Notes: a model not told the origin generated them from the sequence alone. DNA of 9,605 nt from a virus (IMGVR_UViG_2706794696_000003); one strand, 5' to 3'. Counted from the stretch's first letter, positions 3,778 to 4,126 are shown. Translations and numbers: made by a program.

Positions 3778-3806
3778 TTGCAGATGTGATGACATATGGT
3801 TATTAT
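3778..3806 (+). promoter_or_regulatory. candidate promoter of the tRNA array
   Basis: TTGCAG at 3778-3783, 17-bp spacer, TATTAT at 3801-3806, then a GC-rich discriminator (TCTGCCTCC) just before the mature 5' end of the first tRNA at 3816, as seen in stable-RNA promoters. Confidence 0.35.
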
Positions 3807-3815
3807 TCTGCCTCC

Positions 3816-3892
3816 GGCCCTTTAGCTCAGTTGGTCAGAGCGAGCGACTCATAATCGCCAGGTCGCTGGTTCAAGTCCAGCAAGGGCCACCA
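3816..3892 (+). tRNA. tRNA-Ile2 type (genomic anticodon CAT, ileX/ileZ-like)
   Basis: 77 nt. Cloverleaf folded by hand: acceptor GGCCCTT / AAGGGCC, anticodon loop CTCATAA, T-loop TTCAAGT, 3' CCA encoded. Overall sequence resembles the lysidine-modified Ile2 tRNA, not elongator Met. Confidence 0.8.
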
Positions 3893-3893
3893 A

Positions 3894-3970
3894 CCACCAC
3901 TAGCTCATCCGGATAGAGCATCAACCTTCTAAGTTGACGGTGCGAGGTTCGAGTCCTCGGTGGTGGGCCA
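3894..3970 (+). tRNA. tRNA-Arg (anticodon TCT, reads AGA)
   Basis: 77 nt. Acceptor CCACCAC / GTGGTGG, D-stem GCTC/GAGC, anticodon stem TCAAC/GTTGA with loop CTTCTAA, T-arm CGAGG-TTCGAGT-CCTCG, 3' GCCA. Begins 1 nt after the previous tRNA. Confidence 0.85.
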
Positions 3971-3972
3971 GC

Positions 3973-4048
3973 GCCGACTTAGCTCAGCAGGCAGAGCAAC
4001 TGACTTGTAATCAGTAGGTCACCAGTTCGATTCCGGTAGTCGGCACCA
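3973..4048 (+). tRNA. tRNA-Thr (anticodon TGT), thrU-like
   Basis: 76 nt. Acceptor GCCGACT / AGTCGGC, anticodon stem ACTGA/TCAGT with loop CTTGTAA, T-loop TTCGATT, CCA encoded. Resembles host thrU from memory. Confidence 0.85.
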
Positions 4049-4051
4049 TAT

Positions 4052-4126
4052 GCGGGCATCGTATAATGGCTATTACCTCAGCCTTCCAAGCTGATGATGC
4101 GGGTTCGATTCCCGCTGCCCGCTCCA
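4052..4126 (+). tRNA. tRNA-Gly (anticodon TCC), glyT-like
   Basis: 75 nt. Acceptor GCGGGCA / TGCCCGC, anticodon stem TCAGC/GCTGA with loop CTTCCAA, T-loop TTCGATT, 3' TCCA. Appears near-identical to E. coli glyT as recalled. Confidence 0.9.

Follow-up and report, generated by a model that had tools for sequence, protein, structure and literature searches.

We analyzed a 9,605-nucleotide (nt) stretch of DNA from the virus IMGVR_UViG_2706794696_000003, which is referred to below, at its full length, as the window. It is part of a lambdoid prophage and holds a compact array of four transfer RNA (tRNA) genes, Ile2-Arg-Thr-Gly, between the gene for the late antiterminator Q and the lysis genes. 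This array is likely to be a late-region cassette that supplies scarce tRNAs for the efficient translation of phage genes. The array itself is already known, as it is present and annotated in public genomes.

The tRNA genes, their slot and their promoter

ARAGORN called exactly four tRNA genes in the window, all on the + strand: tRNA-Ile2 with anticodon CAT (3816-3892), tRNA-Arg with UCU (TCT in the DNA; 3894-3970), tRNA-Thr with UGU (TGT; 3973-4048), and tRNA-Gly with UCC (TCC; 4052-4126). Consecutive genes are separated by 1, 2, and 3 nt, and each encodes its own CCA end. Their scores against Rfam family RF00005 were 70.5, 56.4, 69.8, and 64.9 bits, respectively, to be compared with a gathering score of 29, and the array is thus confirmed as real rather than a chance pattern. 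The first tRNA, read as lysidine-AU, decodes AUA; tRNA-Arg decodes AGA and, by wobble, AGG; tRNA-Thr decodes ACA; and tRNA-Gly decodes GGA and GGG. A first-pass annotation made from the sequence had delimited the element at 3778-4126, from the first base of a -35 box to the 3' end of tRNA-Gly, and had given the same four anticodons and 1-3 nt spacers that ARAGORN returned.

The label "Met" that ARAGORN attaches to the CAT tRNA is drawn from the anticodon alone. This gene is 92% identical to Escherichia coli K-12 ileY, 90% to ileX, and 96% to ileZ of Shiga toxin (Stx) phages, and identical copies are annotated as tRNA-Ile by the Prokaryotic Genome Annotation Pipeline (PGAP). Its acceptor stem (GGCCCTT/AAGGGCC) contains C4-G69 and C5-G68, which we take to be the pairs by which the lysidine synthetase TilS separates tRNA-Ile2 from tRNA-Met. 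Judged by kinship with ileX and ileY (E. coli tRNA-Met lay outside the comparison), the CAT tRNA is of the Ile2 type, as first annotated. The tRNA-Arg, in which A20, C35, U36, and G73 can be read, is 73% identical to argU, 83% to Stx-phage argN, and 84% to the "Lys" tRNA of phage PhiR47_1. On these identities it belongs to the phage lineage of argN and is no host copy, and the first two tRNAs of the array share their lineages with Stx-phage ileZ and argN.

The other two tRNAs point to the host. The tRNA-Gly is identical to K-12 glyT (75/75), and tRNA-Thr matches thrU at 74/76 positions, the sole differences being U16C and U20C, both in the D loop. The order in K-12 is thrU-tyrU-glyT-thrT-tufB, in agreement with the separation of thrU and glyT by tyrU given in the first-pass annotation. 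No remnant of the host operon (tyrU, spacers, or flanks) was found around the Thr-Gly pair, as BLAST at word size 7 matched only the two mature tRNAs. An origin of both from thrU and glyT is well supported by the near-identity of the mature sequences, whereas residual flank or spacer homology is lacking. The proposal that they were captured and rearranged is no more than plausible, since similarity to the host operon does not extend beyond the mature tRNA sequences.

The array occupies the lambdoid late-region slot. Along the + strand, a 135-amino-acid Q protein (2175-2582; Pfam PF06530 Phage_antitermQ, E = 2.7e-52) is followed by an intrinsic terminator (3702-3730), the tRNA genes (3816-4126), and a lysozyme gene starting at 4449, and the relatives are arranged alike. 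In several unrelated mosaic backgrounds, an identical or similar array is flanked by a Q-type or Q-position gene on one side and a holin gene on the other, and in an Stx2a phage the array lies between Q and stx2. The window Q is 82% identical to a Q-family protein of E. coli VL40 (our locus L007), which stands directly upstream of the same array in that genome. In FDAARGOS_944 (L001), DNA 100% identical to window 3716-4260 is preceded by a gene for an unrelated DUF1133-family protein, and the identity begins at 3716, inside the terminator hairpin. As the same block thus follows different upstream genes, with a junction in the hairpin, the tRNA block is a mosaic module.

A sigma-70-type promoter was matched by our promoter scan at 3778-3806 on the + strand, with a -35 box TTGCAG (3778-3783), a 17-nt spacer, and a -10 box TATTAT (3801-3806) that ends 9 nt before tRNA-Ile2. 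We compared this region in 65 Ile-first arrays taken from public contigs; by their upstream sequence, these arrays form 10 diverged lineages. On our reading of the listed lineages, both hexamers are kept in 8/10, including the Stx2a phage, in which TTGCAA-17-TATTAT stands at the equivalent place before ileZ. The distance to the tRNA is 9 nt in all hexamer-keeping lineages but one (10 nt), and the spacer sequence varies. In mean column conservation the -35 box scored 0.67 and the -10 box 0.73; the spacer scored 0.50, and the DNA further upstream 0.45. In the Stx2a phage Sp5, Sy et al. (2020) used differential RNA sequencing (dRNA-seq) and Term-seq to map the late promoter pR', with the terminator tR' 258 nt downstream, and in the interval from tR' to the tRNAs dRNA-seq revealed a primary start site (PMC7547250). 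A dedicated promoter for the array, as proposed in the first-pass annotation, is therefore supported by the conservation of its boxes together with an experiment at the equivalent place in a homologous relative, Sp5 being the phage in which the start site itself was mapped.

Might the element at 3778-3806 be the Q-dependent pR' itself, with the tRNAs forming the leader of the late transcript and having no separate promoter? In a simple scan of the Stx2a locus, the only + strand promoter-like site between Q and stx2 was the one in question, and the one terminator lay after argO, which speaks for such a reading. Because each Q protein works through a cognate site overlapping its own promoter, pR' should travel with Q. 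Yet the promoter-tRNA block, identical from 3716 on, follows a PF06530-type Q in the window and VL40 and the DUF1133-family protein in FDAARGOS_944, and in all three a terminator lies just upstream of the block. In Sp5, moreover, pR' and the start site before the tRNAs are separate, on either side of tR' (PMC7547250). We consider identity with pR' very unlikely.

The promoter had also been described as resembling those of stable RNAs, and this description stood only in part. The discriminator and leader, tctgcctcc (3807-3815, + strand), is 6/9 G+C as read from the sequence; taken together, the lineages give the consensus tcTgc.ccC, and another lineage reads cctgcgccc (8/9 G+C). This G+C richness lends the description weak support, but no clear A+T-rich UP element was seen on inspection of the window sequence upstream of the promoter. 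Between the -10 box and the start of tRNA-Ile2 (3807-3816 and the homologous positions), mostly pyrimidines precede the G at +1. The short distance suggests a near-leaderless tRNA transcript, with a 5' leader of perhaps 0-3 nt.

Codon usage and a proposed supply of scarce tRNAs

The codons read by the array match those that the phage over-uses. Host usage was taken from 37 annotated K-12 genes (14,701 codons). In the 11 open reading frames (ORFs) of the window, AGG, AGA, AUA, GGG, ACA, and GGA rank 1, 2, 4, 5, 6, and 12 of 59 for over-representation, and the codons read by the array, wobble included, are over-represented as a set (Mann-Whitney p = 2e-6). In two relatives that share this array (26 annotated genes), ranks 1 to 5 are taken by AGA, AGG, AUA, ACA, and GGA. 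The genome paper on phage SfI describes tRNAs downstream of Q, including a tRNA-Thr (UGU), reports an ACA bias, and makes the same codon-supply argument (PMC3636060).

We propose that the cassette works as follows. AUA, AGA/AGG, ACA, and GGA/GGG are rarely used by E. coli and overused by the phage, and the array would raise the supply of the scarce tRNAs that read them. Transcription would have two sources: the array's own sigma-70 promoter (TTGCAG-17-TATTAT), which should be able to act in the lysogen, and, after induction, Q-modified polymerase that would proceed from pR' through the upstream terminator. The encoded CCA ends and the 1-3-nt spacers suggest that the tRNAs would be separated by an RNase P cut at each 5' end, and, given this layout, the remaining 1-3-nt trailers would be trimmed by exonucleases. 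The phage would presumably gain in fitness.

Several points weigh against this proposal. The host reference comes from one 50-kb K-12 region and may not match the host species of the window. Enrichment of the array-read codons is stronger in early than in late genes, and the late genes alone show significant enrichment only for AGA and GGG. The enrichment of GGA in the window is weak (1.44-fold, p = 0.08), and CGG (2.6-fold) and CCC (1.8-fold) are over-represented without a matching tRNA in the array. Rare-codon enrichment is common in horizontally acquired genes, and the correlation is no proof of benefit. Lastly, related arrays carry a tRNA-Lys (UUU) in place of tRNA-Arg; AAA is common in K-12 (33.9 per thousand in the sample), and codon supply therefore cannot explain the whole cassette family. 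The first-pass annotation had pointed to the late genes for an enrichment of AUA, AGA, ACA, and GGA, whereas the array-read codons are more strongly enriched in the early genes.

Variation of the cassette and a possible link to tRNA-cleaving immune systems

In about 50 of 5,426 complete E. coli genomes, at least 80% of a 561-nt query is matched at one place, and the matches listed are annotated as Ile-Arg-Thr-Gly, Ile-Lys-Thr-Gly, or Ile-Thr-Gly. At least 120 viral contigs in IMG/VR carry the phage-specific Thr-Gly junction, which is also present in E. coli, Shigella flexneri, Escherichia ruysiae, Citrobacter braakii, and Enterobacter hormaechei genomes. Among 130 Thr-Gly junction loci sampled for composition, 53 carry Thr-Gly only, 42 Ile-Lys-Thr-Gly, 19 Ile-Arg-Thr-Gly, and 5 Ile-(degenerate)-Thr-Gly, while 11 have another or unparsed composition. 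Four IMG/VR contigs match the left part of the window at or near 100% identity, ~4.1-4.3 kb apiece.

Across this population the mature tRNAs are nearly invariant, and the flanks are mosaic and diverged. A variant of tRNA-Gly has its sixth acceptor-stem pair changed from C-G to U-A, a compensatory change. The second-slot tRNA forms one lineage (82-84% identical) that bears the anticodons UCU (window), UCG (Stx argN), UUU (PhiR47_1), and, once, UAA. Its structure was assessed by an explicit cloverleaf count, RNAalifold having given a non-cloverleaf consensus; with 10 variants counted, 96.7% of cells conform to the cloverleaf, and 3 pairs show compensatory change. These compensatory changes in the tRNA-Gly and in the Arg-slot tRNA point to selection for structure, which favors a functional cassette.

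An alternative is that the array is a neutral passenger, host tRNA genes brought in by illegitimate recombination that have no function and are decaying. Signs of decay do exist among the relatives: a degenerate second slot in five loci and an uncalled one in K_EC180, disrupted anticodon stems in some Thr copies, and a T-stem mismatch in many "Lys" variants. Such a passenger would hardly be expected to keep the Thr-Gly junction in at least 120 viral contigs and five enterobacterial species, to hold its mature sequences nearly invariant within diverged flanks, to preserve its stems by compensation, or to conserve its promoter boxes. We find this alternative barely credible.

Several variant forms occur among the related arrays. 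The "Lys" (UUU) form of the second slot (e.g., L002 4095-4171 and L009 1595-1671) has C33 in place of the near-universal U33 and a U73 discriminator, often with an A-C mismatch in the T stem. The Thr-first arrays (53 loci; e.g., L037 3593-3702) are preceded by a conserved ~55-nt hairpin, cGGTTCYGAGGGG...CCCYGARGAACC, which ends 3 nt before tRNA-Thr, has covarying stems, follows promoter-like boxes, and matched no Rfam family. In two IMG/VR loci with the array Met-Lys-Lys-Gly, a thrU-like tRNA has the anticodon TTT for TGT together with A26G, an apparent anticodon switch on a Thr scaffold.

The Thr copies vary at the positions that distinguish the window tRNA-Thr from thrU. The C16/C20 form was found in 26 sampled copies, and all four combinations at 16 and 20 occur among phage copies. 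In a scan of metagenomes for a chromosomal thrU(C16)-tyrU operon, a single stretch was recovered (L144 7540-8388, OLJY01000043.1). There, a Thr-first phage leader is joined, inside a C16 tRNA-Thr, to host tyrU-glyT-thrT-tufB; the junction was found in no complete E. coli genome, and the stretch is explained either by chimeric assembly through the shared tRNA or by a rare phage-host recombination at thrU. Some phage Thr copies (L007 4773-4848, L012 1658-1733, and those of four IMG/VR loci) read TCATC or TCACC instead of TCAGT on the 3' side of the anticodon stem, a change that disrupts two pairs of the stem as well as the CAG half of the P2-OLD cleavage motif; decay or nuclease evasion could account for it.

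Rather than supplying rare codons, the cassette, and above all its thrU-like tRNA-Thr (UGU), might replace host tRNAs destroyed by immune nucleases, with U16C/U20C making it a poorer substrate. We regard this as unlikely, the evidence for it being indirect. P2-OLD, the effector of P2-lambda interference, kills mainly through destruction of the host's thrU tRNA, and cells are rescued by phage Thr (UGU) tRNAs whose anticodon stems are altered (PMC12445682, 2025). The prime targets of the PARIS nuclease AriB are Lys (UUU) and Thr (UGU), with Asn (GUU) as a secondary, less efficient target; U16 faces or contacts the second monomer of AriB; phage T5 has C16 instead, and cleavage of E. coli tRNA-Lys is significantly reduced by U16C (PMC12409363, 2025). 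The AriB target set is what related lambdoid arrays contain: Lys (UUU) with Thr (UGU), or, in SfI, Asn (GUU) with Thr (UGU). The window tRNA-Thr departs from thrU only at 16 and 20, the two positions at which the phage copies show every combination, and the sole thrU(C16)-tyrU stretch of the metagenome scan has phage rather than host sequence directly upstream of thrU. A few Thr copies, those with TCATC or TCACC, have a disrupted 3' anticodon stem.

Other observations weigh against it. With the determinants taken from the two studies (PMC12445682, PMC12409363), a substitution at or near the anticodon-stem cleavage site, by which nuclease resistance was judged, is absent from the window tRNA-Thr, whose anticodon stem-loop is that of thrU, including the paired CNG (P2-OLD) and the UAAUC|A site (AriB). 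An extra host-type thrU tRNA gives little or no protection against P2-OLD (PMC12445682). The effect of U16C was measured in tRNA-Lys, not in tRNA-Thr, and positions 16 and 20 are generally variable in tRNA D loops, so the changes may be neutral. The tRNA-Gly is identical to glyT and cannot evade by sequence, and the codon-usage match is explained without defence. The supply of scarce tRNAs remains our preferred reading. A related idea, that U16C/U20C in tRNA-Thr is a lambdoid countermeasure to Toprim tRNA nucleases such as PARIS AriB and that the Q-to-lysis slot is a fast-evolving anti-defence cassette, is one we put forward as a doubtful, speculative side hypothesis.

Surrounding genes, known systems and significance

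Upstream of the array, the window encodes a DnaB-type helicase (49-1581) and RusA (1835-2206), both identified by Pfam, ahead of Q. The ORF at 2865-3626 was considered as a candidate for Q and ruled out by Pfam, which identifies it as an ORF6N antirepressor-like protein. The stretch containing it (2587-3626) also holds Rfam matches to isrK (2623-2699), c4-a1b1 (2610-2662), C4 antisense RNA (2725-2808), and sRNA-Xcc1 (2942-3025), and it resembles the P1 immI or Gifsy-1 isrK-anrP module. In VL40, DNA homologous to window 3640-3730 comes immediately after Q, with the same array next in line, and we infer that the isrK/C4/ORF6N module was inserted between Q and this segment. The segment 3640-3730 probably holds both pR' and tR'. 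The terminator at 3702-3730 (+ strand), whose 8-bp stem includes 5 G-C pairs and leads into a T run, is probably tR'. A candidate pR', TTTACG-16-TATCCT (3644-3671, + strand), is proposed with low confidence, as it agrees with the consensus at 8/12 positions, below the 9-of-12 threshold of the promoter scan, and is absent from the list of the scan.

Downstream, the sequence separating the array from the holin gene is masked by a run of 79 N (4269-4347), and the start of the holin gene is hidden or missing. No terminator was found in the window between tRNA-Gly and the holin gene, where the N run lies and where the fold is no better than that of shuffled sequence (z = -0.08). Three near-identical contigs (L041, L084, and L025) and FDAARGOS_944 carry unmasked sequence from the start of the N run, with ~570 nt in FDAARGOS_944 between the points that flank it. 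In relatives this stretch contains + strand terminators, one of them strong and placed directly ahead of the holin gene; such terminators could stop promoter-driven transcripts before the lysis genes. A C-rich Rho site in the 128 nt from tRNA-Gly to the first in-frame ATG of the holin ORF was rejected on composition (C 25, G 30). Beyond it lie, on the + strand, genes for lysozyme (4449-4946; Phage_lysozyme, E = 2.1e-45) and Rz (4931-5407; Phage_lysis, E = 3e-52), followed by an HNH endonuclease (5450-5800), a small terminase (5913-6416), and a large terminase (6413-8146), all identified by Pfam, and by an ORF annotated in relatives as the portal protein (8249-9496).

One of the closest known systems is the ileZ-argN-argO cluster of Stx phages (933W, Sp5, and Stx2a phages), which lies between Q/pR'/tR' and stx, in the same slot downstream of Q. 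Its ileZ and argN are homologous to the first two window tRNAs (96% and 83% identical), its first spacer is likewise 1 nt, and a homologous promoter (TTGCAA-17-TATTAT) stands 9 nt upstream of ileZ. The composition differs, as the first-pass annotation had remarked: the Stx2a set is ileZ(CAT)-argN(TCG)-argO(TCT), whereas in the window the second slot has UCU instead of UCG, the place of argO is taken by the host-derived Thr (UGU)-Gly (UCC), and lysis genes rather than toxin genes follow. On these likenesses, the window array is a compositional variant of the Stx-type cassette. We tried argO as a thrU derivative, but its identities (74% to the window tRNA-Thr, 71% to thrU, and 73% to argU) do not decide the matter.

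The Ile-Lys-Thr-Gly and Thr-Gly arrays of other E. coli lambdoid phages and prophages, such as PhiR47_1, phi467, and the SerU-LTIIb prophage, have the same Thr-Gly unit with a 3-nt spacer, upstream of a holin gene. The Ile-Lys-Thr-Gly arrays also share the Ile2 tRNA and promoter of the window but have UUU with C33 for U33, rather than UCU, in the second slot. In both types the Thr is mostly the thrU-identical U16/U20 form, and the Thr-first arrays differ from the window in their upstream leader hairpin. The K-12 thrU-tyrU-glyT-thrT-tufB operon has an identical mature Gly, a 97% identical mature Thr, and the same order of Thr before Gly; the window lacks its tyrU, 116-nt spacer, thrT, and flank homology, and promoter and context differ. 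Phage T4 carries eight tRNAs, including Ile (CAU), Arg (UCU), Thr (UGU), and Gly (UCC), which are packed, are processed from multimeric precursors, and probably serve host-rare codons. T4 is a virulent phage with a larger cluster and tRNAs diverged from those of the host, and the likeness is one of description only. The Asn (GUU)-Thr (UGU) pair of SfI, Sf6, ST64T, and phage 21 occupies the same Q-to-lysis slot and shares the Thr (UGU) and the ACA bias (PMC3636060), but its partner is Asn, unlike in the window, and this likeness too is by description only.

Phage-borne tRNAs affect the translation of prophage genes, which in Stx relatives include the toxins, and they are now also viewed as tools against tRNA-cleaving immune systems. 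As the array was already annotated and its promoter mapped in a relative, the value of the present analysis lies in confirmation and in a testable side hypothesis. The window offers a clean example of a tRNA set that matches the most over-used codons of its phage, and its host-derived Thr copy departs from thrU at a position that matters for one tRNA-cleaving nuclease. If the side hypothesis were true, the second tRNA would be switching anticodons (UCU, UCG, UUU, and UAA) on one scaffold while the Thr copy changes at nuclease contacts, and the window array would combine codon supply with immune evasion in one mixed cassette.

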